From Cyanophora paradoxa CCMP329 (lineage: Eukaryota > Plantae > Glaucophyta), in NCBI GenBank assembly GCA_004431415.1, contig QPMI01000071.1:1-64000 (forward strand): a stretch of 64,000 bases of DNA. Direction: 5' to 3'. Positions 39,670 through 64,000 of this stretch are shown in pieces (positions within the stretch are counted from its first letter, which is position 1; each line of letters starts with the position of its first letter). Below the pieces are notes generated by a model. It had not been told where the DNA came from. It ran no database searches and saw only the letters and a program-made list of their open reading frames with translations. Both the position numbers and the translations under genes were made by a program.

Positions 39670-39724
39670 GTCCGAGGGCCGGGTACCGTCGACGTCCGGG
39701 GCCCGGACCTTCACGGCACGCCCC

Positions 39725-39782
39725 GGGCCCGTCTCCTTATATATGTGCCGGCCCCTCCCGGCACGTGCACGGCCCCACGGCC
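39725..39782. promoter_or_regulatory. Compact divergent promoter with TTATATAT box (copy 1 at ~5530-5586)
   Basis: CCTTATATATGTG is the only AT-rich patch in the ~113 nt between the helicase ATG (-, 39669) and the Cys-rich ORF ATG (+, 39783). Confidence 0.5.
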
Positions 39783-40223: not shown

Positions 40224-40265
40224 ATAGATGCGAAACGCGGGAGCATTCGAGGTACCCACTGGGCC

Positions 40266-40936
40266 ATGACGCTCGAGCTCGTCCCGTACGACCCCAAGTG
40301 GGGCGCTGCCCGCTGCTGGCTCGCCGTCGAGCCCGAAGAGGATTCGAGCGTGCGGTACGAGGCGGTTGAGCAGCCGCTCGATGGGGACCCGGCGAGGGAT
40401 TTTCGCGCACGTCGTCAGCACGAACAGTTTGCGACGCTTTGCTTTGTGGCGTGGCGGTGCTTTCGCAATCGTTTCCGCGAGCCTCCTCGGGGAATCTGCG
40501 TTCCGGACGAGTGTCCCGTCTGTCTGGACCGCCTCTTGCGGCCCGTCGCCCTCTCCTGCGGACACGTAATGGATTTCCACTGCCTCGTACGCGTGCATCA
40601 CGCCACGTGCCCCTCTGCCGCGCCGCGGTCGAGCCAGACGGGATCTACGCGCTGACCGACGAGCACCGTCGCCGGGCGGCCTCGGAGGAGGGTTACGTCC
40701 AGCGGCTTCGCGAGGCCGCCTCGCCCGACGGCGATCTCGGCTGGATGGCCGATCGGATCCGGCGAAGGCTCGCGGACCCGTCTTGGATGGCGTGGGACTC
40801 GGCCGAAGAGCGCGAGAGGAAGGCGCGCCTGCAATTGTACAGAAACTGCGGCGCGTCGAGGGCTGCGGCCGGTATCGATGCTCCATTTTCGCAGAGAGCC
40901 TCGGCCGTGGCGGTCGGCGGCGCATGCGCAGGCTGA
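40266..40936 (+). CDS. RING-finger protein, copy 2 (1-nt deletion in a C-run at ~40610)
   Basis: Duplicate of 6066-6737. Confidence 0.8.
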
Positions 40937-42223
40937 ACGTCGGACGCGTATACGTGCATGTACGCGTACGTATAGCGCGTATACGGCCGCAACCATAGCC
41001 AGTCGAGCTAACGTACGCGAAGTACTCAGCCGAGTCCCAGTACGAGTAAACTTGTAAATGAAATGAATCAAAATCGTCCTCGTCGAGCTCGAGCTCGAGA
41101 GAGTGTGTCGCGGTCGCGGCCGATAGCGATAGCACAACGCGAGCACGTCCGCGCGCGGCGTGGGCGTCGGCCCTCGGCAGGCCGGCGCCCCACGCACAGG
41201 CCTAAGGTCGGCGCGCGCGCGACCATGGGCGGCGCGCCCTCGAGCTCGAGCTCGAACGCGAGCTGGCGGCGCCTGGCGCTCGCGGCGGGCGCGGCGGAGC
41301 GCGGACGCGCGCGCAATTCGTGTCTCAGCGCGGGACAGCGCCGGCGGATGGCTATAGGCTATAGCTAGCGCTGGCGCCGCCGGGCCGGCCGCGTCGGCGC
41401 GGGGCCCGGGGGCTCGAGCTCGGCGCCTCGCCCCGGACTTCGAGCGCCCGCGGCCGGCGCAGCACTAGTACGTATACTGGGATCCGGACCGCCGGCGCCG
41501 GACCGGCTGCAGGGGCCGGGCCGCGGCCGCCGGGCTCGGCGTCGCGCGCGGCGACATCGATCTCAGGAGTCCCGCGCCCGTTGCCGGGCCACTCCGAGCC
41601 CCTAGGCAAAGCGGCCTCGCCTCCGTGACAGATCTAGCCATAGACGGCCGCGGCCCGCGCCGCGGGCCGCGCGCGGGCCGGCGGGCGGCGGGCGGAGGCG
41701 ATTGCGACCCTAGATGGTTCGCCCTCGGCTCCGTGACAGTGACTCAGTGACTCTACCGGTACGGCGGTACCGTCTCTACGGCGGAGTCTACGCCGACTCG
41801 ACGTGCGACGTCGACGTCGACTCTCTCGCCGAGTCCCGGCCCCGGGTCCGGGTCCGACGTCGACGCCGACTCGACGTCGACGGTCGCCGAGTAACATCAC
41901 TGTACAGTGTACATATATACTATGATACTCAGGCTATGATATATATGTACACCATAGTCGAGCTCGAGCGGCCGTCGGACCGCGAGTACTACGGTACGAG
42001 TTCCGAAGTTCGAATTCGAAGAACTGATCATGATGCGCATGCGCATTCAATGATTCAATGATATCGATCATGATCATGATCATGATTGCGCATGCGCCGT
42101 GCACATGTACTAGGTACGTCATCATCGGCGTCATGATGATATGGATGCCATGATGCGCATCACGCGCGCGACGGGTACCGGGCGTACTACCGGCCCGGCG
42201 GTGGTCCAGCTAGTGCAGTCGAC

Positions 42224-42356
42224 GTCGCGTTGAAGTTCACGCGACGGGTGGTCCGGTGCAGTCGCGTTGAAGTTCACGCGACGGGTGGTGCTGTGCAGTC
42301 GCGTTGAAGTTCACGCGACGGGTGGTCCGGTGCAGTCGCGTTGAAGTTCACGCGAC
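42224..42356. repeat. 4 x 37-bp palindromic tandem repeat, copy 2
   Basis: Duplicate of 8028-8160. Confidence 0.9.
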
Positions 42357-44289
42357 GGTCCAGGGCAAAACGAAATAATTTCGATCATGAAAATAATTCT
42401 ATTTTCCATGAATGACCCCCCGAGCCGGCGCGCGAGGGGCCCGAGGGCTCAGGTCTTTTATATGTTTTGAGCCCATGGGACACGCGCGAGGGGCTGCGCG
42501 AGGGGTCTTTTATATCATTTAGAATTAGATGTCGGCCAAAAATAGACCCGGCCGGGGGCCGGGACCGTAAAATATTTTTAATTTAATTGCCACGTATAAA
42601 AACGTACCGGAATTGCCGAGTCGATAAATTGCCGAGGCCAGCTAGACAATTAAATTGAGACAATTGCCAAGTTCTTCTATGGCGTCCTAAGAGAATCCCT
42701 ACCCCAAACAACATTGCCGTGTCGTTAAATTGCCGAATTCGGCGCGCGTATACGTCTCGGCAATTATTAATTACTAAGTTAATTAATATTTGCGGCAAGT
42801 TGCCGGCAACTACGCGGCCTACGCCGGCCGTAATGCGGCCGCGGTACTACCGTACGCGTAGTACGTATACAGCCCGGCCGCGGCCCGCCGTATACGTACT
42901 ACGTAGTAGTACGGTAGTACTACGTATACGCGGCGACCGCGGCGCCAGGCGCCGCCAGCTATAGCTATTAGCTACTAGCCTAGTAGGCTATAGCCTACAG
43001 CTGCGCTTCTGCGCTACAGCTTCACCCGGGCGGTCGGAGCTGTACGTATACTACTACGGTATACGTAACCGTCGCGACCGCCCGGTGCGGCGCGCGCGCC
43101 GGCCCCAGTCGATCCCAGACTCCGGCCAGGCTCCCGGCCGGGCCGGCCCTCGAACGGACCGTCGGACGCAGTGCGCGCCCGATTTGCCGGCGGGTAGAAT
43201 CTGGCAGTTCGCCTACCATTAGCTCGGGTCGAACGAGCGTCGATCCGAGCACCATGCATATATATATGCATATGCATGTCGATGGCGACGTCGACGGCCC
43301 ATCAAAGTGCGCATGCGTGGCGGGCCGAAGAACCGATCTGGACCCTCTGAGATGATGTTAGATCACTTTTCAAAGTTTCGCGCAGGACCCCGCCGACGGC
43401 ATTTTGATGGCTCACTCGACCGAGCCTCCCGGCCCGTCGGAGGCATGCTCTAATGCATCAAACGTTGATTACTGATCGCTCTCTTATTCGCCATCGAGGA
43501 GGACGATGATGGCTCGCGCGCCCGGCGGCCGCTCGGGCGCTCTAGATCTAGATCTGCGGCCAAGACGTTCCCCTCCGTGCCGCAGTGCGCTTTAGCGAGC
43601 GCGTGCACGCACTGTTGTCGTTCTGTAACGCATACCGCGCGGGTTGAACTCAAGATGGAGTTCTCGCCCGCACGGGGGGCTATGCGGCGTGCACAACGCG
43701 GAGACGCGCTTGCGGCCGTCCGCCGCCGCGGGCCCTCGCCCCGCCGCGCCCCGTTCCTCCCGGAGTCCAGCCCGCGCTGCCCGGCCACCGTCCGCCGCCC
43801 GCGGCCGCGGGCCCTCGCCCCGCCGCGCCCCGTTCCTCTAGCCCGCACTGCGGCCATCCGCCGCCGCGGGCCCTCGCCCCGCCGGCGCGCCGCGTCCCGT
43901 CCCTCCATCCCTCCCCCCTCCGGATCCGTACCTAGTCTCGCCCCCTGCGGCTTCCATTGTTCGCCACATTGCGACGGGAAGATAGGATTTCTAATTATAA
44001 AATGGAACAACGTTCTATAGCTATAGCTAGCTAGCTCCGAGGCTCTAGGGCTCTCTAGATATAGGAGTATGTAGTTCGCTTATCAATCGGGGCATGCGCA
44101 CCCCCTGCCTTTCCCTTTCCCCGACCCCAGAATCTGACTTTCTCTCTTCTTTTGCAATCAGAAAACCTCTTTACATACACGTTAACCAATCTGTAATAAG
44201 AAGAACAAGAACGTAATAAAAGTACAAGGTTTTTAATTGTCCGAAGAGTACTAGACTAGTTAAATTAAAGGGAAAGATAGAACGAAAGC

Positions 44290-47200
44290 CTAAATCATAC
44301 CATCAAATTGTCGCCGATCGGCCCGCTTGGTGCCTGGCGGGAGGAGTGTGATTCGAGCACGAGATGGACAGGAGGGCGGGTTCCGAACCGCGGGCGCATC
44401 CTCGTCGACCTCGTCGGCCTTGCGCTTGCGGCTGCTGGGGGGCGAGGTGTCGGGCGGCGTTGCTCCATCTTCTGCGCGAGGATCAAGGTTGGGGCGCGAG
44501 GCACGGGTCGGCACTGCATACCTTTCGGAGAGCCGACGGGCGTGGCGACCGGTACGGGGGCTTGGCGGGCGCCCCTGCCTCGGCCGCGTGCGGCTCCGCG
44601 CGCGCGCCCCCGGCCACGAGGTACTCTCCTCGCGGGAGCGGAGCTTTGGCGACCTCTACGCTTTTGCGGGGCTGTTGCCGGGTGCCCCACGGTCGCCGCC
44701 GATGCCGCGGGCGCAGACGCGGGCGCCGATGCAGGCGCCGCGGCCCCCGCCGCGTCCTCGGAACGCCTCCCTGCGCGCTTGCCCGTGCGAAATGCTTCGC
44801 ATTGCGCGAGGGACCGGTCCAGCGGCTCCTTCGGCTCCCCTCGGCGGACGGCCTGTTTCACGCTCTCGTAGTCGATGTCCTTTTTCCTGTCGTCCTGATT
44901 AAGCAAGAACGGGGCACGCGATGGGGACGGACCTGATTTCGTGGAGATGAACCCCGAAAACTTCCTCGAAGACCTGGTACGTGAAGCCCGCTGACATTGC
45001 GTCCGACGCGAGCTCGTCGAGGTTCTCGTCGGCGAAGCACTCCTCACGGAAGAGACGCTTGACCGACGGGGGGAGTCCCTTCTCCTGCCGCTTCTCGTTC
45101 TTCACATTGGCCGCCTCCTCCTGCTTGAACTTCATGATGGACTTGATGATCTCGCGGCGGAGTTTGGCGTCGGGTGGGGGCATGAAGATGCTGCGAACAG
45201 GGATTAAACGCGAACGAATACGCACAGGACGGCGTACTGCTTCCGGAAGCGACGAAAAAACTTGTCGTCCATGTTGAGCGGATAGTTGGTCGCGGCGACT
45301 ATAATCGGACCACGGCCGGGGTCGCCTGTGCGAACTCGCCGGTGCTCGACGTCGTTGTAGAGTTTGTCCACCGCCGTCGCAAACTAACACTCTGTGAGTC
45401 GCGGGAAACGTGCACGAGCACTCGAGCGTACCGTGTTCAGGACCTTCTGCTGCAGTTCGTCCGTCGACGGCTTGGAAGCTGGGACGGTCGTATCCACCTC
45501 GCTGGACCAGACGTTATTACGAGAGCGCCATATTTATCACAGGAATCGAGGGTGAACGCACTCTAACATAAAAACGACGTCCTGCATGTCGTGGGCGATG
45601 TTGAAGAACGCCTCGACGACCTTCTCGGATTGCCCGTACTGCTGCAAGATCAGGGATGGAGCGGGTGCGCCGGCGAACGGGCGAGCACGTATTCGTTGAT
45701 CTGGGACGGCTTGTACTCGAGGAAGCTGTACCCGATGCGGCGAGCGAGCTCGCGCGCGAACTGTGACTTGCCTGTGCCCTGCGCGACGCAAATCAGCGAG
45801 CGCGAAGCGGGCCCCCGCGCGGAATCACGGACCGGCGGGCCGAACAAGAGGACTCCAGTGGGCGAGAGGCGCTGAAGGGACGGCCACTCGTCCGCCGCCT
45901 CGTCTCCCTCGTCGGGGTCCAACCGGTTTGGACCGAGGGCCTGCTCGAGGTCTTCCATGGTCCCCTCCGGAACGACTGGCGACCGAGTCGGATAAGATTC
46001 ATCGAGGCGCGGGCGACACGCTCGCACCATAGGGATGCATGCTCGCGAGGCGCTCGTTGTCGATGAACGCCTTTTTGATGTTCTCCGCGGCCTCCGCCCT
46101 GAGCCCACACACCGCCTTGCCCCACGCCGTTTCGAAGTCCAACTTTCTGTCGGAGAACGTGAGAACGGATCGCCCCCCGCCGCGAGGTGCGGGCAAGAGG
46201 CACCGATCCATGTCGGGGGTCGGTCTTGGGCCATTGTGGTGCAGGTAGAGGGGGTTGTTCGGGTGGTAGATTGGGATCTCGGGGTCGAGGAGGCATGACA
46301 GAAGGGCGTCGTCGCCACGCAAGCCTTCCTCCGCCACGTGTGCTTCTAGCGACCTTCGGACGGTCTTGATGAGCTCATCTCCGCGCTCCGCCTTCTGCCG
46401 CCTACTCTCCTCGCTCTTCGACGCTCGACCGCCCTTGGGCGGGGGCGGGGGCGCGGCCGCCGCGCCGGAGCCGTCGGCGCCGCCCCCCGCCCCCCGGCGC
46501 GCGTGCTCCTCCACATCGAGGACCGCCTGCCCAAGAGAGAAGTTGGGCGCGTTGAGCTTCTTCACGTGCGTTCGCGTCGTCTTCGGGCCCATCATGCGCA
46601 GACAGGGAAACGCCCGGAGCGCCGCGCCGATCTTGCGAATCCGCAGAAGCTGCGCATGCGAGCGAGGCGTCAGGGTGGCGCCCGCGCCGACGAGCGGGAT
46701 CGGGGCGGACCACATCGACCAAATTCTTCTTCCCCTTTTCGATGTCGGTGTGGTTGACCGTCTTGTCGCGAAAGTCTTGGACCGTCCCCGTCGTTTCGAG
46801 GGAGAGCATCTTCGCCCAGTCGAGCTTGCCGCCCGGATCTCGATCGAAATCCGCTATCTTCTCCTCGACGAGGCCTCGAATCCGTTCGCTCAGGGTCTTG
46901 CTGCTCAACGACTCGACCGCTCGCCCCGCCTTCTTCTGCGCATCCTCCTCCTCTATCCGCCGACCCTCGTACTCGTAGAAAAGGACGACATACTGCGACG
47001 AAAGAGCTCGTCGGCGGGCAGAGTGGGAATGGGATTGGGAGGCGTTGTACCTGGCAAACCATCATAAAGGTCGCGGTGTTCTCCAGCTCGCCTGCCGTGA
47101 CGATGGAAGCGGCCGCCGACATGAACCGATCCAGCTCCCTGTACTTGCTCGGATCGTTCTTGATTTGCGAGATGAGATCCACAGGTGCGGAGGCGGCGAG

Positions 47201-48430
47201 CCCGCGCATGGCCGCGGACAGCTCGCCCGACGCGAACGGGTTGACGCTGACAATTGCGCTGTTGGAGGAGCTTTCGCTCGCATCCGCCACCACCGTGCCC
47301 GCTGGCGCCGGCGCCGTGCTCGACGACGGCAAGGCTGCGGCTGGCGAATGCTGAGGTGGTCGAGGGACGACCCGCCGAAAGCTGCCGAGCCAGCCATCCG
47401 CGAGATTCTCGACGATGACCTCCGCCCTGTACTCGACCGTCGCGTCGGCGCGACGCGTACGGCCCTTGCGCGGGCGGTCTTGATCATCGTCCGAATCGTC
47501 GCCAGCTTCTTCGGCCTGCTCGTCCTCCTCGTTCTCCTCGTTTTCTTCTCCTCCGTCGCCGTCGCCGGCCTTGCCGTCGCCGCCGTTCGCCTTCTTGGGA
47601 CCTTCTTTCTCCTGCCGGCGCTGCCCTTTCTCCGGCTTCGAATTCTTTTCGCGCGCCGCGGCCGAGTCGAACACGCGCTTGAACAGATCCCAACGCTGGT
47701 TCGCCGCCCGCTGCAGGCCCTCCGGAAGCCCCGCAGTGTCGTGGTACTTTGCACAGACGGAGCCTGTGTTCCCGAGATTGACGGCCTCGGGGACTCCTCC
47801 GCATGCGCTGCGCATCGAGCGGGTTACAACGAGACACTCTACACAGTCGGTACGATGCGCACCACTCCGCAATCGCGTTCCTGTAGCCGCGGAAGCGCTC
47901 GTCCGAGATGAAGCACGGAAGACACAATCGGCGTCGTGCGCCGCAGTCGGGCTTGCAGAACGAGACCGGGAGCAACAACACCTGCTTACATACGACACAA
48001 TGACCCTCCGCTGCGGATCGGCGTTAGCGGAGCACGGCGCGCCGCGGTGCTCGTCATAGCGCGCACCCGTCGACTGGGGCGGCGGGGCGGCGTTCGGCGG
48101 CTTCTGCGGACCTACGCTCCCGCCCGACTGCATCCGCTACGCGGAGCTTTCGCGTGGGCGGAGCTTTCACGGTACCCAGCCGGCCAAGCGGTGTCTCCCA
48201 TCTGCTAAGACGCGTTCCAGCCGGTCTGCCGCGTTTTTTCGTCCCTTTCGAGCATCGTTGAGCCCCCCTTTCAATTCCGGCCTCGCCCCGGATGAGGACG
48301 ACAGCATCGGCGAATTCGCGTGCGTTCGTCTCGTATGCAGCCTGAAACGCGAGCGCGCATGTCGGCGCGCCCTTGCGTGCCCTAGCTCGCGAGCGCGAAC
48401 ATGAGAGGTCGAGCCCACATCGTGGTCCAT
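44290..48430 (-). CDS. RING-like + AAA ATPase spliced gene, copy 2
   Basis: Duplicate; the intron splitting Walker A lies at 45779-45832. Confidence 0.8.
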
Positions 48431-48859
48431 GACACCCCCGGCCGTGCGTTACTGCTCCTCCTCGGCCCTCGAAAGCTTAAGATGACTCGCCATCCAACTT
48501 TGACACATACAGAAGCTCGCTCGAAACGTTCCTCGAAACCGGTGCAGTTACTGTGCCATGGGGCCTCCTTCCCGGAGTCCCCGCGGCCGTCACGGTGCCG
48601 CCCTGAATCCTTTCAGGGGCTCGACGCGGTCCGCCCGCCGCCACTCTTGACGCGCTCGCGCAGACGCCGATCGGGCTCGCGGCGAGGACGACGCCAAGCC
48701 CTGCGACGCGGTTCGGCTCGTCGCTCCTCGCGCGACCTGCGCCGGGTCGAAGCGACAGCTTATAATGCTTAGATACATGCCGCCGGGGCAGGCGGAGCTC
48801 TCAATGCGCACCTTGGGCGTCGTACGTCCGCTCCCCAACGCCCGTTTCGTACAGACTCT

Positions 48860-50355
48860 ACTACAGAGTCATCCCGCCCGCGCAGATGGAGGTGGTGACT
48901 GAGCTCGCGGGGTACGAAGGAAACAGAACAGAACCCACCGCCGCCCTCCGCCGGCCCGTGCCCCCCGGCGGCCGTCATGGAGCGGCGGCGACTCCGTCTA
49001 GGACGTGGCGGCTGCGGTGCCGCGCGTACCCCCCGGCTGCCGTCACGGAGCGGCGGCGCGTCCCTCTAGGGCGGCGCGGCCGCGGCGCCGCGCGTACCCC
49101 CTCGGCCGTCACGGAGCGGCAGCGCCTCCGTCTACGGGGGGGGGGCGGCCGCGGCGCCGCGCGTAGCCCCTCGGCCATCACGGAGCGGCGGCGCCTCCGT
49201 CTAGGGCTCTCCCTCCACCAGCATCTCTTTCCTTCGAACCCCCCGCGGCGCGGTACGCCCCTCGCCCGACTCCGGCGCCGCCCTAGAGGGAACTGACTCG
49301 GCTCCGTGACGGGCGGCGGGGGTAGGTGCACCCCTCTTTCGTTCGTACCCCCGCGGCACGGTACGTCCCTCGCGCGACGCTGGCGCCGCCCTAGAGGGAA
49401 CTGACTCGGCTCCGTGACGGGCGGCGGGGGTAGGTGCACCTCTTTCCTTCGTACCCCCCGCGGCGCGGTACGTCCCTCGCGCGACGCCGGCGCCGCCCTA
49501 GAGGGAACTGACTCGGCTCCGTGACGGGCGGCGGGGGTAGGTGCACCTCTTTCCTTCGTACCCCCGGCGGCGCGGTACGCCCCTCGCGCGACGCCGGCGC
49601 CGCCCTAGAGGGAACTGACTCGGCTCCGTGACGGGCGGCGGGGGTAGGTGCACCTCTTTCCTTCGTACCCCCCGCGGCGCGGTACGTCCCTCGCCCGACG
49701 CCGGCGCCGCCCTAGAGGGAACTGACTCGGCTCCGTGACGGGCGGCGGGGTAGGCCCGTGTCTCTTTCCTTCGTACCCCCCGCGGCGTGGTACGTCCCTC
49801 GCCCGACGCCGGCGCCGCCCTAGAGGGAACTGACTCGGCTCCGTGACGGGCGGCGGGGGTAGGTGCACCTCTTTCCTTCGTACCCCCGGCGGCGCGGTAC
49901 GCCCCTCGCCCGACGCCGGCGCCGCCCTAGAGGGAACTGACTCGGCTCCGTGACGGGCGGGGGGGTAGGCCCGTGTCTCTTTCCTTCGTACCCCCGGCGG
50001 CGCGGTAAGCTCCTCGTGCTACCCAAACCCCTGAAGATGCCACTAAGATATATATAAAAAGCCAAATAGATAACGAGTACAACTCTCATCCCCGCCCGCG
50101 CAGATGGAGGAGCCCACCGAGCTCGCGGGTACGAAGGAAAGAGGACAGAGCCCACCGCCGCCCTCCACCGCCCGTACCCCCCTCGGCCGTCACGGAGCGG
50201 CGGCGCCTCCGTCTAGGGCGGGGCGGCCGCGGCGCCGCCCGTACCCCCCTCGGCCGTCACGGAGCGGCGGCGATTCCGTCTAGGGCGGGGCGGCCGCGGC
50301 GCCGCCCGTACCCCCCTCGGCCGTCACGGAGCGGCGGCGATTCCGTCTAGGGCGC
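48860..50355. repeat. Repeat module 1, copy 2
   Basis: Duplicate of 14490-15975. Confidence 0.9.
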
Positions 50356-50698
50356 GGCCGATCTCCTCCCTCAACCGTGTACCCCCTCGACAACCTCCAC
50401 GCGGACGACGAGCCCTTTCCGCATACACGTGCCCTCGTTCGCTTCCACATGCCCTCTGCAACGCCTCTCCCGCCCCGTACCCCTCGATACCCCGGCCCGC
50501 CCGCCCAACTCCCGCCGTCGCTCGCGGATCGCGAGCCGACTGCGCGCGTTGTTCTCGAATATACGTGATTTGCGGATTCAACCGAAACGCTGGACGCGTG
50601 GGGCGGGGAAGGCGCTTTCGCTCGAATTCAACTGACGGCGTGCTTAAAGGCGGAGCAGACGGTCCCTGGACGCACATTTGCCATCGACCTCGACGATC

Positions 50699-51175
50699 AT
50701 GGAGGCCTCTACCGTCGTTCAAAACGCCGCCCGTCGCATCTCCAGCGCCCTCGTCGCCGGTCGACCGATCGCCCTCGCGCTCCGGACTCCGACCCTGCTC
50801 AAGCGCGTCGCCGAGGTCGTCGAGCCCGCCGTCGCCAGCCTCCTCGTGCGCGCACACGTCGTCGTACTGCCGGAGCCGCGCGGCCACTGGCTCGTCCGCA
50901 TCACCCCGCCCGGAGCTCAGGAGCCCGCCTCTTGGGGATCAGCGACCGAACTCCCCGCCTCCGAGAGCGCCGTCCTCGCCCTGCTCGCGGGGATTGAGAC
51001 CGTCGTCGCCCGCTTCGCGCGGGCCGAGGCGGACGAGCTCTCCGCAAAGATCCTCGCGGATCCGCGCATCGCGCACCTGCGGCGCCGCGTGGGCGTCACG
51101 CGCCAGGAGGTACCCGGAGCACCGAATTCGATCTTCTGTGTTTACGCGGTCGGCCGCGGCGCGAGCCGTAGTTGA
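50699..51175 (+). CDS. Hypothetical 158-aa protein; N-terminal domain paralogous to 29680-29898
   Basis: Globular amphipathic composition (MEASTVVQNAARRISSALV...GHWLVRITP); gapless similarity to the 72-aa ORF. Confidence 0.65.
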   Translation: MEASTVVQNAARRISSALVAGRPIALALRTPTLLKRVAEVVEPAVASLLVRAHVVVLPEPRGHWLVRITPPGAQEPASWGSATELPASESAVLALLAGIETVVARFARAEADELSAKILADPRIAHLRRRVGVTRQEVPGAPNSIFCVYAVGRGASRS

Positions 51176-51914
51176 CGCGTTCGTAGGCTCCGTACAGCTA
51201 GAAAACGCAGCGCTATAGCTACAGCCAGGCCGTGATGCAATAAGCTCGTCGACGTCTGTTTCGTAAATGCGTACCCCAAATCCGCTGATCATGGGAGCGA
51301 GCCGGGGCGAGCTCTGCGGCGAGCCGCGAGGCGCGTCGCTGTCTAGCGCTCGTTGCGGGCGTTTCGCTCGCACAGCGAGCGTCCAGCAGGCCACATCGGC
51401 GTGTCACCGGAACGTATCGTTGCAGCGCCCCCAGCGCGACGCAGATGCGGCGGTTGGGGTGAGAGAGCCGCGGATCGGAGACCTCGGCGGCTCGGATCGC
51501 CTCGGCTTCGTGCCCGGCGGCCGGCGGGTGTGGCGCGCGCGCGCCCGAGGTACTGTACCTTCGCCTCCGACCGCAACAGCTTCCGGACGATATTCGCGGT
51601 CGAAAAGTCGAGGAGATGGCGGAGGACTGGTGCGCCGTGCCATATGCATCGCGCCGCGCAGCGAGGTCGAGCGCCTTGATAGCTTACAACCGCGCAGGCC
51701 TGGGTCGTCCGGCGCGGACGAGCTCGAGGCCCGGCGGCCGCGGCCTCGATCGAGCGGGCTACGTGCGCGTTCTACCGACACGGCCCGAGCTCCGTGATAG
51801 GCGGCGTGGACCCACGCCGGACGGGCGCGCGGCCAATCTAAGCGGATCCGGAGTCGCGTTCGCAAGCTGTCGCCTTCGATACGATAGGTGCGCCCGTTGC
51901 TCAGCGCCGGCGTC

Positions 51915-53090
51915 CCGTTAGAGGGGCTTGACGCGGCTCCGTGACGGGCGGCGGGGGTAGGTGCACCCCTCCTTCGTTCGTACCCCGCGTAGGAGGTGAA
52001 TTCCGCGCCCGACGCCGACGCCGCCCTAGAGGGAACTGATGCGGCTCCGTGACGGGCGGCGGGGGTGGGCCCGTGTCTCTTTCCTTCATACCCCCGGCGG
52101 CGCGGTGAGCCCCTCGCCCGACGCCGGCGCCGCCCTAGAGGGAACTGATGCGGCTCCGTGACGGGCGGCGGGGGTGGGCCCGTGTCTCTTTCCTTCATAC
52201 CCCCGGCGGCGCGGTGAGCCCCTCGCCCGACGCCGACGCCGCCCTAGAGGGAACTGACGCGGCTCCGTGACGGGCGGCGGGGGTAGGTGCACCTCTTTCA
52301 TTCGTACCCCCGGCGGCGCGGTGAGCCCCTCGCCCGACGCCGACGCCGCCCTAGAGGGAACTGACGCGGCTCCGTGACGGGCGGCGGGGGTAGGTGCACC
52401 CCTCCTTCGTTCGTACCCCCGCGGCACGGTACGTCCCTCGCGCGACGCCGACGCCGCCCTAGAGGGAACTGACTCGGCTTCGTGACGGGCGGCGGGGGTA
52501 GGCCCGTGTCTCTTTCCTTCGTACCCCCCGCGGCGCGGTACGTCCCTCGCCCGACGCCGGCGCCGCCCTAGAGGGAACTGACGCGGCTCCGTGACGGGCG
52601 GCGGGGTAGGCCCGTGTCTCTTTCCTTCGTACCCCGGTGACGCGGTAAGCTCCTCGTGTCACCCATATCCCCTGAAGTTGTCACTAAGATATATATAAAA
52701 AGCCAAATAGATAACGAGTACAACTCTCATCCCCGCCCGCGCAGATGGAGGAGCCCACCGAGCTCGCGGGGTACGAAGGAAAGAGGACGGAGCCCACCGC
52801 CGCCCTCCGCCGCCCGTGCCCCCCTCGGCCGTCACGGAGCGGCGGCGATTCCGTCTAGGGCGGGGCGGCCGCGGCGCCGCGCGTACCCCCCTCGGCCGTC
52901 ACGGAGCGGCGGCGATTCCGTCTAGGGCGGGGCGGCCGCGGCGCCGCCCGTACCCCCCTCGGCCGTCACGGAGCGGCGGCGATTCCGTCTAGGGCGGGGC
53001 GGCCGGGGCGCTGCCCGTACCCCCCTCGGCCGTCACGGAGCGGCGGCGATTCCGTCTAGGGCGGGGTGGCCGGGGCGCCGCCCGTACCGT
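51915..53090. repeat. Repeat module 2, copy 2
   Basis: Duplicate of 17535-18700. Confidence 0.9.
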
Positions 53091-53308
53091 GTACCCCCTC
53101 TTCGGCCATCGCGGTACTTCCTTCCCGCCATCGCAACGCATATACCAAGCAATAACTCGCGTACACGCACAGGAGCGGGCGCTTTCCGCCGTCACGGAGC
53201 GGATGTGAATCCTCCAAGGCCTGGGTCGGCTCTGTCGAGCGCGTGAGCGAGCCGCCCCCCGCCCCTAGGACAATTGCCCGTCGCTCCGTGACAATACCGA
53301 TCCTTCGC

Positions 53309-56300
53309 TCAGGTACGCGTCTTTGGCGGGCGACCGCGCCGCCGGGCAGGCTGGGCGCCGCGCCCGGCGCCGCCGCCGCGCGACGACGACGGAGACGAGG
53401 ACGGCGTGGCAGGCGCCGGGAGGCCCAGCAGCTCCAGAACGCGCTCGGGGCCGGTTCGGATCTCGACCGTGCCGTTCCGTCCCTCGTACTCGACGGGATA
53501 AAGTGACGAAGGAAAGCTCCACTCGCGCGGTCCGCCCTCCTGGCTCGGCGCCCACGCGCCGCCGAAGCGCTTCAGCACCACGAAGCGTGACTCGTACTCG
53601 CCGCTCGGCAGGTCGATCGTCTGGACGAGGCGCGCGAACCACACGCCGGGGAGCGGGCTCGCCGCGTGCGTCGCCAGCGCCGCCACCACCTGCCCCGCCG
53701 GGTACGGCGAGGCCGACCGCCAGTGCAGGTGGTAGAGGGGCGGCGCGGGGCCGGCGGCGGCGACGCCGACGGGGACGGGCTCCTGGGAGGCGCCGCCTCG
53801 GCGCCCGCGCGCGCGGCCGAGGCCACGCCGGCCGCGCGCGCCACGGAGGAGGCCGCGCGAGCAGTAGTGCTCGTGGGCCCGCGCCCCGGCCGAGTTCTTA
53901 AACTCCTTGCGGTGCGTCAGGGCGGCGGCGCGGGGGGGCGGCGCGGGGCGGGGCGGCGCGACCTGCTCACCCGATCGCAGGGCGCGCAGTACCTCTGCTC
54001 GGCGATGGCGAGCTCGCGCTCGAGGGTGTAGTCGGCGTCCCAAGCGCGCGGCCTGTCGGCCCCGTCCGCCGCCGCTTGGCCTCTTCGCTCCCGTCGGACG
54101 CGCCGCTCCCGTCCTCGCCATCGTCCTCCGAGTACGAGCTGGAGCTCTCCGCGCCGCGCCCCGCGCGGAAACGCGCCGAGGCGGACGGAGGCGCGGTTGA
54201 CGGCGCCGGCTCGTCGTCGGCGTGCTCCTCGGAGCCTCCACCGTCGTCCCGCCCCACCTCGGTCCCGCCGCCCAAGCTCCCGCCCGCCGTCGAGGGCGCG
54301 GGGGATCCGGACGGCGGCGGCGGCGGCGGCGGCAGCGCCGGTGCCGGCGGGAGTTCGAGGCGGGGCGGCGCCTCGGCCGCGGCGGCGCTCTCGCGGGCCC
54401 GGAGCCGGGCTTCGTCGTGCTTGACGGCGAGCTGCTCGAGGTACGCCACCGCCGCCGCCGCCGTGCGCGCCCGCGCCGAGTAATCGTAATTTTGCGTCGC
54501 CGTCAGCACCGAGTGGCCCAGAAGCTTGGCTGCCGGCGCGCGGGTGGGGCGAGGGAGGCGAGGGGGCGGGGGCGCTTCGGCGTACCCGTCCCGTCGACGA
54601 CGGCGGCCGCGGTGTCGCCGGAGATGCGGTTCGCCGCGGCCTCGTCGCGCACGTGCGTCGTGATGATGGCCCGCATCGCCTGCGCCGTCACCGGTACCCC
54701 CGTCCACTTTTCCGTCACGCGCTTGACAAAGACGCTCCAGGCCGAGTCGGAGAGGGGCGCTCCCGAGGCGCTCGTGAAGAGCCAGCCCTCGTCCGCGCCC
54801 CCCGGCAGCGGCGGGAGGAGGAGGCGCCGGTACCGCTCGACGTACGAGGTGAGCGGCCGCTGCACAAACTCCGGGATCGGGTAGCTGATCGCCCCCGCAG
54901 TTTTCGCGGTCTTCGACGAGAGGACGGCCTCGCCCTGCCCCGCGTCCGCCCGCATCTGGGTGAGCGTGATTGTCCACGCGCCGCCGTCCCGCCGCAGCGT
55001 GTGGCCGATCCTGCGGGGGGCGCAGAGGGGCAGGACGGGGCCCTCGCTCGGCGCGGGGCGACGGCGCGGCGCGGGGGGTACGGCACCTGAGGCGGCGGAC
55101 GATGCCGACGCGCGAGGGCGTGGAGACGAGGAGCGACAGGAGGACGCCCTCGCGGAGGGCGAGCGCCCTCTCGTACTCCAACGGCGCCCGCTCCGCCGCC
55201 TCGAGCGCATCCAGCCGCGCCGAGAGGAGCGCCTCGAACGGCACCCAGTTCGGTCCGCGCTGACGCCATTTCACGCCTTCGCGCTTCTCCTTTCTCAGCT
55301 GGGCGATCAGGTTCCGCAGCGGGCGCCCGTGGGGGCCCTCGGAGCCGGCGGCGGCGCCGGCCGTCCGCGCGTGGACAAAGGAGTGGGCCTGGAGGGCCGC
55401 CTGCGTGTACCCCGCCAAGGTGCCCGCCCGGACCCTGCGCTCGCCGCGGAGAAACGCGAGGAACCGCATCCACAGGTCGATAAAGTCGACGCGGGCGCCG
55501 GAGAAGAGGTCGAGCGTGAGAGCGCCGTCGATCTTCTCGCGGAGGGCGCAGTACCCCAGGAACCGGAGGAGCGTCGTCCGCTCGTTCGCCAGCGTCGTGG
55601 AGCGCTCGACGGCGGCGCCGGGGCGGTCGGGGTTGAGGAGGCGGGTGCGAAACTCTTCGTACGCGGCGAGCTGCGCCTTGAGCTCGCGCGACTGATCCTC
55701 CTCGCGCAGGCCGTACGGGGCGCCCCGCTCTGCCGGCTCGTCGCCCGCGGGGCCTTCGTCCTCCTCCTCGCCGTGCTCGTCGGCCGGGGGTACGGGCGGC
55801 GGGGGCGGCGAGGCCCCCGCCTCGGCGGACCCCTCGGGATCGGCGCCGCCCGAGTCCGACTCGGACTCGTCCGGCTCGGCGGGGGCGGGCGCCGGCGGGG
55901 CGCGGGCGCGCTTGGGGGGTACAGGGTCCCCGGCGGCGCCGAGCACCACGCGCTCGGGGTCCACGAGGGCGTCCACGTCAAAGAGCGTCGCCCCGCCGTG
56001 GTCCATGCTCTCCAGCATCCGCCGGTACGCCAGCCGCTTCTCGGCGATGAATTTCCCGTTGTCCTTTGCGATCTGATCCGCCATAGGGCCCCCGGGGCGG
56101 AAGAAGTGGATGGAGCCCTGCTCGAGCTCGTCCGACCACGGAAAGCCCGTCGTCGCCTCGACGATCCCCACGTCCGCGATCCAGAGGACCCCTGCGCGGT
56201 GCGCGCGGCATGAGTTTGATCCCGTTACCCCGCGGAATCGAACCGGGCCCGCACAGATGCCGCATTGGAACCCGTCCCCTGGAGGCGCCCACCGGCCGTC

Positions 56301-57705
56301 TCCTCGCGGTACGCGTGCGCGGGAAAGGCCGCCTGGGCGGCGTAGAGCAACCTGGCGTCGCAGGGCGCGCCGAGGCTGTCCCAGTACCGCGTCGTCCTGC
56401 GGGGGCGGCGCGATCGCGAGTGGCGCAGAGGACGCGGGCTCGGGCGCGGGGGCGCGGGGCGCGGCGCCGTCGGACCTCGCGGCGCCGGAGAGCACGAGCA
56501 GCGTCCAGTGCCCGCCGCTGTTCGACGTCCGCTCCGCCCCGCGCCGCGCGATCGACGTCGAGACCGGGCAGAAGAGGGTACCCCCCCGCGCCACGAACCC
56601 CAGGGCCTTGCGCTGACGCCGCTCCTCGCCCGCCGCAGCGTAGCGCCGAAGGAGGCTCGTCAGAATCTCCACCGGCATGGGGTACAGGGCCCGCACGCGC
56701 GCGTTCTTGGCGCGGTGGAGCAAGAGGCTCATCACGTTGGCGACGTGCGTGTCGGCGAGCCACTCGCGCGCGCCAAAGATACCGACCCTGGGTCCCGCAG
56801 GCGCCGGCGCGGGGGCCGCGGCGGCGACGGTGGCGGGTCGGCGCCCTCTAGCACGAGCCGCTGGCGGCGAAAGTCGAGGTGGAGGTTCGGATCCCGGCCG
56901 GGGAGATCCTTCAGGAGGCTTTCGACGGCGACGGCGCTGAGGAACGCCCAGCGGCGCGCCGAGCTCCGCGTTCGCTCCCCGTCGACCTCGGCGCCGATGC
57001 CGGCGTAGTAGGTGAGCGTCCTCGTGAGCATGCCGAAGCGCTCGCGCCCGACGCTGAGCGTCGTAACGTTCCAGCGGTGCGGGCCGCCCGACGCGAGTTC
57101 CGGGAGGCGGCGCTCGATCTCCCGGCGGAGCGAGTTCGTGGCGCGCGAGGAGCCGTAGAGGAGCTCGGAGAGCGACGCCATGGGGACCCAGAGCTTCAGG
57201 TCCGGAGCCTCGATCCGGGTCGCCGGCAGGGCGTAGAGCCGCTCGCCGCCGACGCGCACGACGTGCAGGTCGTAGCGGGAGAGGGCGCACAGGCGGCGGC
57301 GCTCGTTGGCGGCGTAGAACGCGGTGGCAGCGGCGCGCTTCCGGGCCTCGTCGCTGTCCCGCCACGCCTGGTCGACGACCTCGAGCACGTACCTCATCGA
57401 CAAGAGGCGCGGCGGGTCCTCGGGCGTGTACTCGCCGCGCCGGACGGCCCCGAGGGTCTCCAGGAGGAGGATCGCGTGCTCGCTCGGCACGGGCCGCGCT
57501 GGGACGCCATAGCGCGCGGTGAGCACGTCCTGCACCTCGTCCTCGCCCTCGCCCTCGGCCAACGGCGGCTCGCCCAGGACGCGCGCGAGCTCGGCAGAGC
57601 AGACGGAGGCCCGGCGTCGGACTTTAGCACCACGAGCTGCGTCCGCCCCCACGGCCCGTCGAACTCGATCAGCTCGTACGCGTCGTGGACCGTCTGGAAG
57701 TACAT
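53309..57705 (-). CDS. Ulp1-protease / tyrosine recombinase fusion, copy 2
   Basis: Duplicate of 18917-23313; its indels are complementary to those of copy 1. Confidence 0.85.
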
Positions 57706-58387
57706 GGTCGCCGGCCGGGCCGTGCGGGCGGGCGACCCGGAGTGGGAGGGGCGAGGTGTTGGGATTCGACGTGCGGGGTGGGATCTATTTATGGTAACCT
57801 CGCACCTTTAATCCTCGCGCTCGCGTCGCCGATGTTATCTTTAGTCCCTGCGCACAGGCCGCGCGCGGGGCGGAAGGCCGACGGGAGCGGACGAGGCCGA
57901 ATCGTATCCCCACGAGCCGAGGCCGCCATCCCACGACGTTGATCACGTACGCCCGCCCGGCTTCGTCCCCCCCCTACACCTTACCCCCTCTGAAATTCGG
58001 CCAGGTTTGCCACCTAGGGGCGCCCCGCCCTCGTCGCCCGCCTGCGTCGCGGCGGCGGCCGCCGCGCCCCGCCCCGCATTGACCACGTACGCCGGCCCGG
58101 CTTCGTCACCCCACCCCACCCCGCCTTTGCTAATATTCGGCCAGGTCTTCCACCAAGGCGCTCGGCAACGCGCGGCGTCGGCGACTCATCACCGCCGCCC
58201 GCGGCGATGAGATCGGTGCGCCCCCGCCGGCTCGGGCTTCGGGGACGGCGCCGGGCGCCCTGCGACGCCGCGAGGCTCAGATCCGAACGCGGCGGCGCGG
58301 GAGGCGGAGGGCCGTCTGGAGCGGACGTGGCCGAACTCTCCCAGAAATGCCTCCGATCTCGCTCCTCCTCGAGCTCGTCTTCGTCGG

Positions 58388-58821
58388 ATGACAGCTATGA
58401 CACCGATGATCCTTCTCTGCTCCGACGGCGTCCATATCCCGTGCCCCGCGGCGCTCGCGCCGACGCCCGCATCCTCTCCCTCGCCTCGAGCTGCTCCGAC
58501 GCCGACGTGGCCCCCGTCCCGCTCCCCTTCCGCTCCTCGCTCGTGTCGGCGGCCGGCGTCGCCCTCTCGCACCCCTCACCCGCGGCGGCCGCCCTCGCCC
58601 CGGGGCCTACCCCGACCGCGGGCCGCCGCCTCGGCTCTCGTCTTCCTCGCCGAGCTCGCGATCCTCGCCGATTACCTCGACGCCCGGCGGCTCGAGCTGG
58701 CGTGCGCGGCGCTTGCCAGCAGCGCGTCCGAGCTCGCCATCAAGTCCGCCTGGGCCAAGGCGAGCGTCCGTCCGCCCCCGCCCCGCGGAAGCGCCCCTTT
58801 CAGGCTATCGGATCTTCGTAG
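58388..58821 (+). CDS. Skp1/BTB-POZ-like protein, copy 2 (indels)
   Basis: Duplicate of 24001-24438. Confidence 0.6.
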
Positions 58822-59065
58822 GGACGTGTATTGAACGGCCTCTCCGAGTACTGCGTGCACCGGCGTCTGCGGGGCCAGGGGTACAGATTTTGGGGACCCT
58901 TGGACCCCTCTCCGGGGACCTAGGGTTCGTTTTGAAACGAGGTCCGGGATCCGCACTAGCAATTTATTCGCGCTCTCCGGGCCCTCCCCAGCCCCTGCGA
59001 TGCGTTTGTGCGGGGCCGACTTTTTGTTTAACGGGGTATTCGACGGTCCCTCAATCTGTATTGGA

Positions 59066-62000
59066 GCTTTTCGCATGACTTTCCTAACAAGTTTTAGTTT
59101 TCCTCGGTTGCAGTTGCGAGTTGATCGTATTCAAGATCATGATTAGTTGTTCTCAATAGACCTCTCTTCCGCCGGACCCTTGTTGCGTCTTCAGCCTCCT
59201 GTACATGTTGCATTGTTACCCCATGGCCACTTTCTGGCTCTCAGAGTTTGATCATTTATACCCCGCTTTCTATTTATAATGAATTGCTTGGAATCTTTGT
59301 TTGGTGCGGCGTCGTCGTCTGCAGCTGATGATATCGATGCATCCGATCCTGTCTCTCTTGTGCCCCCTAAAAAAATTATTCTCTGCGTTCACGTGTCCCT
59401 CGCGCGATCGAGCTTGTCGTGACCATGAGTCTTCTGAATTTTATTACGTCATTTTCTGAAATGAGGCCTTGCATTGAATTTTGATTTGCAATTAATTGTT
59501 GTCTAGATCCGTAGACTTCGGCAGTGTCGGCCATGAGCTTCACCTCAAGCAACTCGTGGGCTTTATGATCAGTCGACGATGGCCAAGCAAATTTAAAGTT
59601 TAAGCACCAGCGTCAGAGCCCGAGAGCAAAGGGGACGGCCGCGGGCCTTGGCCCCCCTGCAAGCTGCGTCGCCTGGGCGGGCTGTTAATATCGCACGACA
59701 AATTGCACGATCGGGCTACAAATCAAATACAAACACAAATACACATGCGTTTACAAAGCATCTAAACTTAGTAAGTTTAATATAAGCCTCGATCGCGAAT
59801 TCTACTCTAAACTTGAATGCCATATGCATGATGGTTAACAAGCACATTTCGAAACGTTGTCAATATTTCGAAACCATGTCAATATTGAGACTTAACGCGA
59901 ACCTCCAATTAACTTAGTAACGTGCACGTGCGCCGCGGCGAAGCCAAGGCAAGCTCAGCGGCTCATGATCATGATCATATCATTATATTAGTTGCGTGGA
60001 CATATCATTAGACGCAGATCTAGATCGCCGCGTTCCGAAGTTCGGCGCGTCGTGCACGAGAGGTGCGCGGTGCAGCGAGGGACGCTGCGCTGATCATGAA
60101 GATGAACTTTCGGAACGACGGCTACGCCGATTCGAAGAAAACGTGTACTCCCCGTTGACCTGTGCGACCTGTTCAATTCGCTGAGCCCGCGCGACTCGTG
60201 GCTTCGAAATGCAATCGGAAGCAGTCGGAGGAGGAGAAGTTGGCGGCTCGCCGCCCGCTCGCTCTCAGCCAGTCGACCAAGCCGCAGCAGTGCCGCGCGC
60301 GCCGCTTCCGATCCGACTGACGGCTTCAAGCCGGCCGGAGATCGAGCAGGAAGAGGCGACATGCCAGCTGTACCCGCGCGCGAGTCATCGGCAGTGCTGC
60401 CTCTCCCGAGCGGGATCCATCGCCGGCCCGATCTGCGCGGGCGTCTCTCATCGCATCACCCTGCACAGGTCGAGTAGCTGATCCCTGCAGCTGAGCGGCC
60501 TGAGCCGCCCTTCGCTTCGACTGCTCAGCTAAGCCTCAATCCAGCCGGCGCCCGCGCGCCAGCGCTTCGCCCCGTCGGCCTCGGACGCTGCGCGCCTCTC
60601 CACTCTTCTCCGCCTGCGGTGCGCCCCATCGCCCCGTGTGCTGCGTGGCCGGGCCTGAGCGCTGCTCGCCCCGCAGAGCCTGAGCCCCTGGCGCCGACCC
60701 AGGGGCAGAGAAGAACCGCTGCTTTCGAGATCTGCCGGACGCAGCTGCCAGCGGCGTGGCTCGGCGGGTATTCCCGAGCTTGCCTGCACTCTTCCTGTGC
60801 GCCCCCCGTCCTTCCCGTGCCCCTCGGCGCGGCAGGGCCTGACCTCGGCTCGGCCCCGCAGCGCGCGAGGGGCGGCGGGTCGCTCCCGAAGCCGCGCCGC
60901 GGCCGAGCGGGTCTGCGCGCGGCTGCACGCCCTGCGGCCTCACCCGTGGCACCGGGCCCCTCGCCGCCCGGACTCAACCGCGTCTCAAGCGGCCACCGCC
61001 GCCACCTGATCCCCGCCGGACCTCTCTCGTCCCCGCACCGACCGCGGACGAACGCGGCGCCGCCCCGGCCTCAGCCCCGCCCCTAGCCGTGCCTGCGCGC
61101 TCGATCCCCGCCGGTCCTCCCTCGTCCCCGCGCCCTCTGCCCGACCTCGGCTCGGCCCGCCCGACCTCAGTTCGGCCTGGCAGCTGCAGCGCGCGAGGGC
61201 CGTGCGGCCGCCTCGGGAGCCGCGTGGCGGGTCCTCCGCGCGCGGCCGCCCTCCCTCGCTCCGCCGCACCACCCCCGGTCGGCCGCTCCGGCCGCCTCCG
61301 CGGCGCCGGCGCGGCCCCATGCGGCCTCCCCACGAAACTCTCTCCCGGACCGCCGCCTTACCGCGTCCCTTGGACTCCGGGAGCCCATTTCCGCCCCGGT
61401 TCAGCCCCGCCTCGATCCCTGCCTGCGCCCTCGTCCCCGCGCCCTCTGCCCGAGCGCAGCCCTCTGCTCGTCCCTCGGACGCGCCGCCGCTCTGAAATCG
61501 GTCCGCCGGCGGGAGCCCTCCCCACGCCGCGCCGCGTTTCCTTCTCCTGCGTCCGTTCGGCCATGTACTCGGCCCTTCTCGGTGCGCCCCGATCCTTCTC
61601 GTACCCCTCTCGTAACCCGCGGCGCGTATCCTTCTCGTCCGACTTGGACTCGGCCCTGCAGCGCGAGAAGGGCCGCGGATCGGATCGGGGGCCGCCTCAG
61701 CAGTTCGCTCCCGCCGGCCCAGCCCTGTCCTCCGACTCCCGCCCTATGCCTCGGCGCGGCGCAGCGCGTCGGCCCAATGCGGCGCAGCAGCGCAGGCCCT
61801 TCCGGGGGCCTTGCCCGCAGCCACGCCCCCCCCCCCCCCCCCCCTCTCCCCCGCGCCTGCCGCTGCCCCCGCGTCGGGCCTCGGCCGCGGCCGCCCGTCC
61901 CTCGCCCGCGGCGTCGGTGCCGCTCTCCTCCCGGCAGCTGCCTGCCGCTGCGCTTGCCTCCGCTCCTTCCGCCCCTCCCCCCCTCGCTGCCGCCGCCCTA

Positions 62001-64000
62001 CGCCCCCTCCGCCTCCTCGCATGCCCCGGCGGCGCTGTCCCCGTGGATGGCCCGAGCGGCCACCGCCGCCCCCCGCTCCCCGGCTGTCCTCTCTGCCCTC
62101 GCTACCTTTACCCCCTCCGGCGCACTCGCTGCCTCGGACGGCTCGGCCTTGACTCCGCAAGTCCGCCTCCAGCCGCCCTCGCTGCCTTTACCCGCTTCGG
62201 CGCCTCTCTGGCGCGGGGCACGCCCCTTCCGAGCCCGCAGCTGGGCCTGTCGCCCCGCCCGCCGCCGCCTCCTCCTCCCGTCCCCTCCCCGCCCCCCCCC
62301 CCCCCCCCCCCCCCCCCACCCTCCCCCCGGCCCTTCCGCGCCCGGAGCTGGGCTGCCGCCCCGCCCGCCTCTTTCTCCTTCGCCTCCTCCTTCCCCCACA
62401 TCCCTCGCCCCGCCCCTGCCCTTGACCCTGTCCGGTGCGCCCCGATCCTTCTCGTACCCCTTCTCGGTCCTTCTCGGTCTGACTTGGGCTCGGTCCCGCA
62501 GCGCGCGAGGGCCGCGGATCGGATCAAGGGGTCGCCTCGGCAGTACGCGGCCGCCCCGGCCCCACCTCCGGCGCCCCTCCGACCGCTTCCGCTCCCTTCG
62601 CCCCTCCGGCGCCGCCCAAGCGGGGGGGGGGGGGGGGGGGGGGGGGGGGCGGCGCCGGGCTCCCCCCCCCCCTTTCGTCTTCTCCGCGCCCAATGCGCCC
62701 GCGGGGGCCTCGCCGCCATTCCCCCGCCAAGCCTCTGCGCGGCCGCTCTCGCTCTTGAGACGCCACCCGCCGCGGCCTCCTCCCTCCTCCCGAACCCGCA
62801 GGCGACCCGGGCCGCTCCCTCGCCCCCCGCGGCGCCGCTGTTCCCGTGGAGTGGACGCCGCAGCGCGGCGCGGCGGGCCTCGGGGCCTCCGGTCTCGGCC
62901 CCGTCCGGCGCCGTGTCACCCCTCGGGGGTGCCACCCCGCGCCGTCCCCGCCGGCGGCCTCGGGCCTCCGGGCTCGGCCCGGCGGCCGCCCACGCTCGAG
63001 GCCGCGGCCGCGGCGCCGCTCGCTACGCGTCTCTACGCTCCTCGCGACCGCCGCCCCTCGCCGTCCCCGCCGGCGGCCTCGGGCCTCGGGCTCGGCCCGT
63101 CCGGTCGTCCCTCGGCCGCGGCCGCGGCCTCTCGACGCCCTCTCGACGCCGCGGCCGCGGCGCCGCTCGCTACGCCTCTCTACGCTCCTCGCGGCTGCCG
63201 CCTGCTCGCGGCCGCTGCCCCGCGCCGTCCGCGCCAGCGCCCGCCACTCCCCCCCCTCCGAGGCTCCGCCCCGGGCCATGCCCGCCCCCCTCCGGCCCAT
63301 CATCTTGGCCCGCAGTAGCCGGTGCGCATCGCCCCTTCCCCTGCTTCAAAGCCGACCTGAAGTATGCCCCCGGCCCGGCCCCGCAGCGCAGCGCCGGCGG
63401 GCTGGAGGGGACGGCCGGCCGCCTCGGGAGCCGCGGGTACGAGAGGCGGGGAAGCTCAGCGGCTTGAGGGGAGCGCGTGGGGCCGCGCCCCGGGCCCGCC
63501 CTTCGGTCGCCGCGGCCCGCGCCACGCCCAGCCCCACCTACCTTTCCCCGGGCGCCCGCTCGCCCCCGCCCCCGCCACCACACGCTGGCGGGGCCGAGGC
63601 CCTGGAGGCTGCGGCAGCTACGGTCCGCCCTGCATCCGGCTCGCATGCCCGCACGCCCCTTTTCCTCCGGCCGCCGGGCCCTTAGGCTTCCAGATCCGTA
63701 ATTCACCCCCCGTTTGCTCTCTGATTCTTCCCAGCCGGCCTTCAATGTCACAGAATCCGAACAAAGAGAATGCATTAAAATTCGACATAGCACAGACAGC
63801 TAGAACTGGACATGCACATGCGGACCCCGCCACCCTGCCGCTGCCCCTGCCCTACGTATACATAATGCCCGGCCCCGCCCCTCACTCCCAACCGAAGAGA
63901 AAAAGTAACGTTCCAGCGCGGGACCTCAGACACCGGTTCCGACCCGGGCAATATCGACAGAGGTGAGGGTCGCGGGAGGGTTCGTCCACACGAGGTGGTT
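59066..64000. other. Flanking DNA outside the element (probably host): ~0.9 kb AT-richer, then low-complexity C-rich sequence with degenerate internal duplications
   Basis: No match seen to 24683 onward, and the GTCACGGAG motif was not seen. Local duplicates include GGTGCGCCCCGATCCTTCTCGTACCCC at ~61581 and ~62434. Long C and G runs. Confidence 0.55.

Follow-up and report, generated by a model that had tools for sequence, protein, structure and literature searches.

Introduction

In a 64,000-nucleotide stretch of the glaucophyte Cyanophora paradoxa CCMP329 genome (contig QPMI01000071.1, positions 1 to 64,000, here called the window), a large unit present in two neighbouring copies gives way abruptly to host DNA. 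The locus raises the question whether this edge and the joint between the copies are the attachment sites of a mobile element, and how such an element would have entered the genome. Our answer is that a 34.4-kb element was probably inserted through a circle, with its own tyrosine recombinase as the presumable agent, and that 24682/3 is the likely attachment site. No description of such an element was found in the literature searched, outside which lie the supplementary tables and figures of the Polinton-like-virus surveys, where it may be listed; in their excerpted text PMC8502044 and PMC12344493 speak of viral-like sequence in Cyanophora paradoxa without mentioning this element.

Results

One unit in two head-to-tail copies

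Copy alignment showed that the complete unit and the part of a copy preceding it are a head-to-tail arrangement of one and the same sequence (Table 1). The copies (1-24688 against 34177-59071) are 98.86% identical, and over these 24.7 kb they differ by 12 substitutions, 259 indel bases and, additionally, the base at the junction. Eight single-C indels of copy 2 (57800-59065) are missing from the contigs of all three DNA runs compared below, and these checked indels are assembly errors. Since they are absent from the short-read contigs, the frameshifts of copy 2, including those in the recombinase gene, are likely assembly errors as well.

The unit holds about a dozen genes, with introns, and its GC content is host-like. 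The search for terminal inverted repeats gave 0 terminal matches, the longest match within 500 bp of the unit ends being 8 nt. The terminal 7-mer recurs once in inverted form inside the left end, and this copy might, on weak grounds, be an accessory site. The segment 41700-43300 is non-coding, AT-rich and palindrome-rich, with a 37-bp repeat at 42224-42358, and is similar in style to the flank at 59700-60050. Two TTTCG words come after the TCCAATA at 24795-24801.

Table 1. Positions of the unit, its junctions, genes and repeats in the window
Feature	Position	Strand	Remarks
Full element unit	24683..59065		34,383 bp, 68% GC; both ends set by contig forks
Preceding copy, right-hand 24.7 kb	1..24682		continues beyond the window edge
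Head-to-tail joint, attP-like	24682..24683		without host bases; zero shared bases implied by contig geometry
Left-end start CCTTTTGG	24683-24690		compared with host half-sites GCTTTTCG and TAATTTCG
Bulged inverted repeat	24662..24684		5-bp arms GGTCC/GGACC around a 4-bp hairpin, 3-nt bulge; role doubtful
TCCAATA	24795..24801	+	inverted terminal 7-mer, which recurs only here in the unit; 113 nt inward of the left end
H3-like gene, five exons, intact	24974..25840	-	162 aa by exon phases
Repeat arrays, 107-109-bp and 66-69-bp	28687..33447; 48969-53088		both orientations
GIY-YIG nuclease	31199..31732	+	Pfam PF01541, E 2.5e-8
UL9-like origin-binding helicase (PF02399), 1950 aa	33697..39549	-	language-model features, score 0.97
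RING-finger protein	40266..40655	+	Pfam, E 4e-6 to 1e-3
Intron-rich gene, AAA ATPase motif	44899..48133, approximate	-	Pfam PF00004, E 0.04, below cut-off
Tyrosine recombinase gene	53309..57705	-	contains introns; product of about 1300 aa with N-terminal domain, C48/Ulp1-like motifs and YR domain
Spliced gene nearest the right end	57790..58834	+	RNA-guessed contig
Element right end / host junction, attR-like	59065..59066		end of the element contig in runs X1, X6 and X11
Host half-site GCTTTTCG	59066..59073	+	flank 1
Single-copy host flank	59066..64000		45% GC up to 60000, then 75% GC

The right end and the host junction

At least half of the words sampled from 57000-61100 were contained in 14 of 24 sequencing runs, and the contigs of four runs were compared with 57800-60400. 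Three of these are DNA runs, which may be a single campaign on a single strain; the fourth, X15, is called RNA by guess, none of the matching runs being recorded as RNA. The junction letters and coordinates given in the first-pass annotation proved correct: after TATTGGA, which ends at 24682 in copy 1 and at 59065 in copy 2, the former continues with C, CTTTT and GGTTTTT and the latter with G, CTTTT and CGCATG. A sharp boundary is indeed present, and the spread of the break as far as 59071 has to be given up, the contigs fixing it exactly at 59065/59066.

The element contig halts at 59065 in each of the three DNA runs, and at least three continuations were seen among the contigs listed. The first, a 1593-nt contig, follows the window flank unbroken from 59036 (depth 74.7, 85 and 118.8), so that 59065 is borne out as the boundary of element and host in each of these runs. 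The second is a 60-nt contig leading into the left end of the unit itself (depth 152.6, 162 and 243.5). The third (545, 559 and 559 nt; depth 76.8, 91.6 and 124.6) leads into a different, second flank, which starts TAATTTCG according to the letters of run X11. The bridging contigs hold 30 element-side letters, one below the expected 31, as a consequence of the fork. Since the continuations were found in independent runs, the 59065 junction is not chimeric, and this base is also where a second copy stops; the first-pass annotation had made its proposal depend on where other copies end, and this contig fork gives the identical position.

An empty allele was not assembled in the three DNA runs, in which the flank contig is unbroken, and neither a left host junction nor a free circle was seen in these data; Cyanophora paradoxa is described as more likely haploid in the excerpted part of PMC6704402. 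The flank looks transcribed from about 60142. The right-end 21-mer gave 0 matches among the viral contigs searched.

The head-to-tail joint and the target motif

The joint contig is exactly 60 nt long in all three DNA runs and consists of 30 nt of the right end and 30 nt of the left end. Contigs of this assembly overlap by 30 letters, and ends sharing c bases in some left host junction would give a joint contig of 60 minus c; therefore the left end is 24683, presumably without a base common to the right end. The same contig geometry implies that zero bases are shared between the left host junctions and the right end. The earlier suggestion that 24682/3 is the junction of a circle was upheld in so far as the ends meet cleanly and without host bases, as expected of a circle; the attP-like role is what this arrangement suggests, tandem joints mimicking circle joints in contigs, from which rare forms are dropped.

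The shared CTTTT to which the first-pass annotation had drawn attention is not borne out as a classical att core, since it is missing from the second flank and the 60-nt joint contig leaves no identical overlap. A 5-nt match between the joint and flank 1 has a chance of about 0.002, and this one is partly chance and partly the TTT motif. The base at +1 differs in the three continuations (C, G and T), and the six bases past the cut read CCTTTT, GCTTTT and TAATTT; common to all three are TTT at +4 to +6 and G at +8. In the two host flanks +4 to +8 is TTTCG. Random flank sites would share a run of five bases at one offset, as TTTCG is shared here, with a probability of 0.003 when the first 8 nt are considered and of 0.02 for the first 30 nt; with four of the five bases also in the left end it is 8e-5 to 9e-4, figures that concern a motif chosen after the data had been seen and just two insertions. 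The target is likely recognised loosely, as NNNTTTSG, without an identical core.

The inverted repeat noticed at the joint is present and complete only there; its geometry has to be corrected, as it contains a 3-nt and not a 2-nt bulge and straddles the joint. Its folding energy is weak (-3.4 kcal/mol, z -1.3), and similar patterns occurred in 4 of 2000 shuffles versus 3 of 46 real windows with comparable GC. With the cut inside one arm and such weak statistics, it was rejected as the core site of the recombinase. Symmetric arms of 11-13 bp around any 6-8-bp spacer were not found at the joint.

Number of copies and loci

The depth of the joint relative to the mean of the flanks was 2.01, 1.83 and 2.00 in the three DNA runs. 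The joint has therefore about twice the flank depth, which suggests that two joints stand against two exits and that there are four copies. The depth of the element contig is only 2.7-3.4 times that of the flank versus the 4 expected for four copies; contig depth is not copy number, and GC bias, or splitting where the copies differ, is our guess for the lower value. Among the named Cyanophora paradoxa gene models there are two more helicase copies matching neither copy of the window, one with 12 of 1950 residues changed, the other a differently frameshifted fragment. They are numbered g507 and g518, and the H3-like model g511 lies between them, which is the order expected of a second dimer. 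A recombinase model matching the window sits on another named contig, and eight variant positions among the contigs (57800-59065) do not correspond to the differences between the window copies. The simplest reading would be two loci with a dimer at each; a 3+1 arrangement is also conceivable.

The recombinase and its relatives

As had been noted, the recombinase gene lies about 1.36 kb inside the end and points inward: its start codon (57705) is 1360 bp from the end, but a spliced gene of the plus strand intervenes. By profile, fold and catalytic residues the protein is a true tyrosine recombinase. Language-model features assign it to PF00589 (score 0.97), and a profile of 80 sequences matches XerC-like proteins (E 2e-8), XerD and XerA (to 6e-7) and Tn1549 Int (3e-6). 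Its structure model, of pLDDT 84, has a match to Cre (E 1.3e-4); folding of the single sequence gave a pLDDT of 43. In the 31 of 92 relatives that cover more than 250 residues, the catalytic residues are kept in most cases (R 30/31, K 29/31, second R 28/31, H 28/31, Y 26/31). The first His of the R-K-HxxR-H/W-Y set is replaced, by Q here and by K in 21 of these 31. The recombinase (P0006) itself matched no Pfam family at E 0.05, PF00589 included, and its match in PHROGs, to an integrase, is weak (E 0.032).

At least six paralogues with 34-62% identity are located on six further Cyanophora paradoxa contigs, as found by looking up 10 of the 92 relatives. P0007-P0011 and P0017 have the same N-terminal and C48-like architecture as the element recombinase and probably represent a family of related elements. 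A C48 match was obtained for P0007 (E 0.011, below cut-off) and none on P0006.

With the recombinase as single query no relative was detected by word-based protein search or in viral or metagenome contigs, and two alignments of relatives used as queries found no recombinase relatives in viral contigs. The best 80 of 105 metagenome loci with distant relatives have a median GC of 63%. In these 80 loci tblastn matched neither the helicase nor the histone nor the N-terminal part of the recombinase; 33 pairwise alignment ends among them gave no clear element termini, and a scan of 32 ORFs neighbouring the relatives in 8 long loci found no capsid. Three of the neighbourhoods may be mentioned in their own right. 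One distant relative (L034:7584-18568) has as neighbours a telomere resolvase (PF16684, E 5e-15) and a helicase of the DEAD type, a setting that resembles a plasmid or virus; a D12-class adenine methyltransferase (L055:565-1413) lies near another, and near a third is a Tc5/pogo-like DDE transposase whose inverted ends are shared (L006:12921-15032).

Other genes and repeats of the unit

The UL9-like helicase had no Pfam or PHROG HMM match, and its relatives were not found in viral contigs; among 7992 candidates it recovered only itself. In the spliced gene nearest the right end, the RNA-guessed contig has three short GT..AG introns over 57857-58817 and runs on towards the recombinase start; the product had no Pfam or PDB match and looks Skp1/BTB-like by eye only. 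The repeat arrays have in common the 9-mer CTCCGTGAC, with 48 copies in the unit and 0 in the flank, and are candidate origin or partition sites. Searches of Pfam and PHROGs for a capsid, packaging ATPase or terminase gave no match (33, 25 and 16 frames), these libraries missing many such capsids and frameshifts breaking ORFs.

The H3-like gene lies 290 bp inside the left end, its four introns are all GT..AG and its frame is intact. The tail of the protein matches canonical H3 (E 1.5e-9), which is also the best match of the C-terminal part (E 8e-15). For exon 3 (helix 1-loop 1-helix 2) all 11 PDB matches are constructs containing Cse4 or Cnp1, at weak E values (0.0085-1.2). Centromeric H3 proteins are marked by a long loop 1, loss of Q68, W at 84 and replacement of T107, and the alignments of the element H3 display all of these. 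The N-terminal tail of centromeric H3 cannot be aligned to that of canonical H3; the element protein differs in this respect, its tail being alignable. It would thus combine a canonical-like tail with a loop 1 region resembling that of centromeric H3.

Discussion

Comparison with known systems

The element functions like a Crypton, a Starship or an ICE, yet it fails tested features of each, and it is probably a variant of its own among the recombinase-mobilised DNA elements of eukaryotes. The yeast 2-micron plasmid is a small episomal nuclear circle with its own tyrosine recombinase, repeat-based cis sites and perfect inverted FRT sites, and it encodes no helicase or histone. The likeness would lie in the nuclear circle with a recombinase of its own and in the repeat-based cis sites; the element has in addition a helicase and a histone.

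Cryptons, as far as the excerpts of Kojima & Jurka 2011 (PMC3212892) describe them, are likewise eukaryotic, have a tyrosine recombinase and no TIRs, and are proposed to move as a circle; some carry a C48/Ulp1 peptidase. Crypton F/S has C48 or GCR1_C as companion domain, and the element recombinase gave a Pfam match to neither. Cryptons code for hardly anything apart from the YR; in that text they measure 353-5999 bp, versus 34,383 bp and about a dozen genes here, and have terminal direct repeats of 4-6 bp, whereas the contig geometry implies no identical terminal repeat for the element, which adds a helicase and a histone to what is listed for Cryptons. The excerpts on Starships (Urquhart et al. 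2023, PMC10104507) show similarly large, cargo-rich elements with an inward recombinase near one end and a loose target consensus extending past the cut, as in the element. Starships are described there as fungal, with a DUF3435 captain as first gene, a direct repeat at the cut and TIRs. The element, in contrast, has no DUF3435 match, a spliced gene lies nearer its end, it has neither of the repeats, and its matching bases begin at +4.

Polinton-like viruses that encode a YR (PMC10120064, PMC12220804 and PMC11296320, in excerpt) are comparable in size range and in having recombinase, helicase and GIY-YIG, and usually make no target duplication, which agrees with the element. An integrase together with a replicative helicase within 14-40 kb, a feature of these viruses, is found in the element too. 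According to the same excerpts they have capsid genes and TIRs of hundreds of bp, neither of which was detected here; the element genes differ further by their introns and host-like GC. In the excerpted descriptions of Tn916/Tn1549 and CTnDOT (PMC5812530, PMC2817482), a tyrosine recombinase acts via a circle with a non-identical overlap on loose AT-rich targets. Tandem arrays are known of other ICEs. Tn916/Tn1549 and CTnDOT are bacterial and conjugative, and the overlap model for the element comes from two sites, which a blunt joint fits too.

Mode of insertion

A Tn916/CTnDOT-type overlap is favoured because no identical core exists. The excerpts at hand provide precedents for it: Tn916 uses a non-identical overlap (PMC5812530), and in CTnDOT (PMC2817482), likewise in Tn916, short matching of the overlap is needed only beside one cut. 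The recombinase would excise and insert the unit as a circle, whose joint would have the sequence found at 24682/3. Positions +1 to +6 would form the overlap, in which only TTT would pair at the first strand exchange; the mismatch would be resolved by replication, and the six bases of the target would have been kept on the right side in both insertions. Dimers would result from the insertion of a dimeric circle, or from a second circle entering a resident end, and the UL9-like helicase together with the repeat arrays would replicate the circle. By analogy with the bacterial elements this geometry may apply in detail, a proposal we make tentatively and with some doubt.

Among the alternatives, herpes-like concatemers made via the UL9-like helicase could have been cut to defined ends and joined to the host by repair, the recombinase only resolving dimers. 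Such a scheme would suit the helicase, the repeat arrays, the dimeric appearance of both loci and the absence of an identical core. The same end base in two insertions and an offset motif common to the left end are unexpected from repair, however, and neither a terminase nor a capsid was matched, so that we regard it as quite unlikely.

Classical recombination of the Crypton or Starship type at a short core (CTTTT or TTT) identical in both partners, with the G/C mismatch as a later mutation, is very unlikely. The improbable 5-nt match to flank 1 speaks for it, as does the joining of the recombinase to C48-like motifs known from some Cryptons (PMC3212892, in excerpt). Against these points, the second flank differs at +1 to +3 and shares only TTT and G, the junction base is at full contig depth in three runs, and each of the two insertions would have to have mutated later.

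Rolling-circle transposition of the Helitron or IS91 kind would also produce abutted joints and tandem copies without duplication, and the zero overlap of the joint and the TC with which the gene-sense strand starts would fit it. Helitrons are characterized by an HUH Rep, TC...CTRR ends, a 3' hairpin and an A|T target. Only TC is present here, and Helitron ends were rejected; the other end is AAGG and not CTRR, there is no subterminal hairpin, A stands next to TC in the host in one of the two flanks, and the three HUH-like strings in six frames lie in no recognisable gene, which makes this mode highly improbable. Mis-assembly or a chimera, for which the many indel errors of the window (259 bases between copies) might be adduced, has a next to negligible probability, as the junction with the flank and the joint between copies are each contained in the short-read contigs of all three DNA runs.

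Insertion by the recombinase through a circle is thus the reading we retain. A wider view of the element, which we consider rather unlikely, would see in it a capsid-less integrative nuclear plasmid of an alga: a 34-kb circle with homology-free tyrosine recombination, UL9-like replication from repeat arrays and inheritance via its own centromere-type H3. It would be the founding member of a family that counts at least six further recombinase paralogues in the same genome.

Significance

Integration by eukaryotic tyrosine recombinases is mostly assumed by analogy to involve a circle and a short identical core. Here the evidence of both ends, the joint and two targets suggests that integration took place without an identical core; the alga can be cultured, and the question is testable. 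The element is intermediate between Cryptons, Starships and Polinton-like viruses, and its H3 variant with centromeric traits bears on whether mobile circles may borrow or supply centromere machinery.
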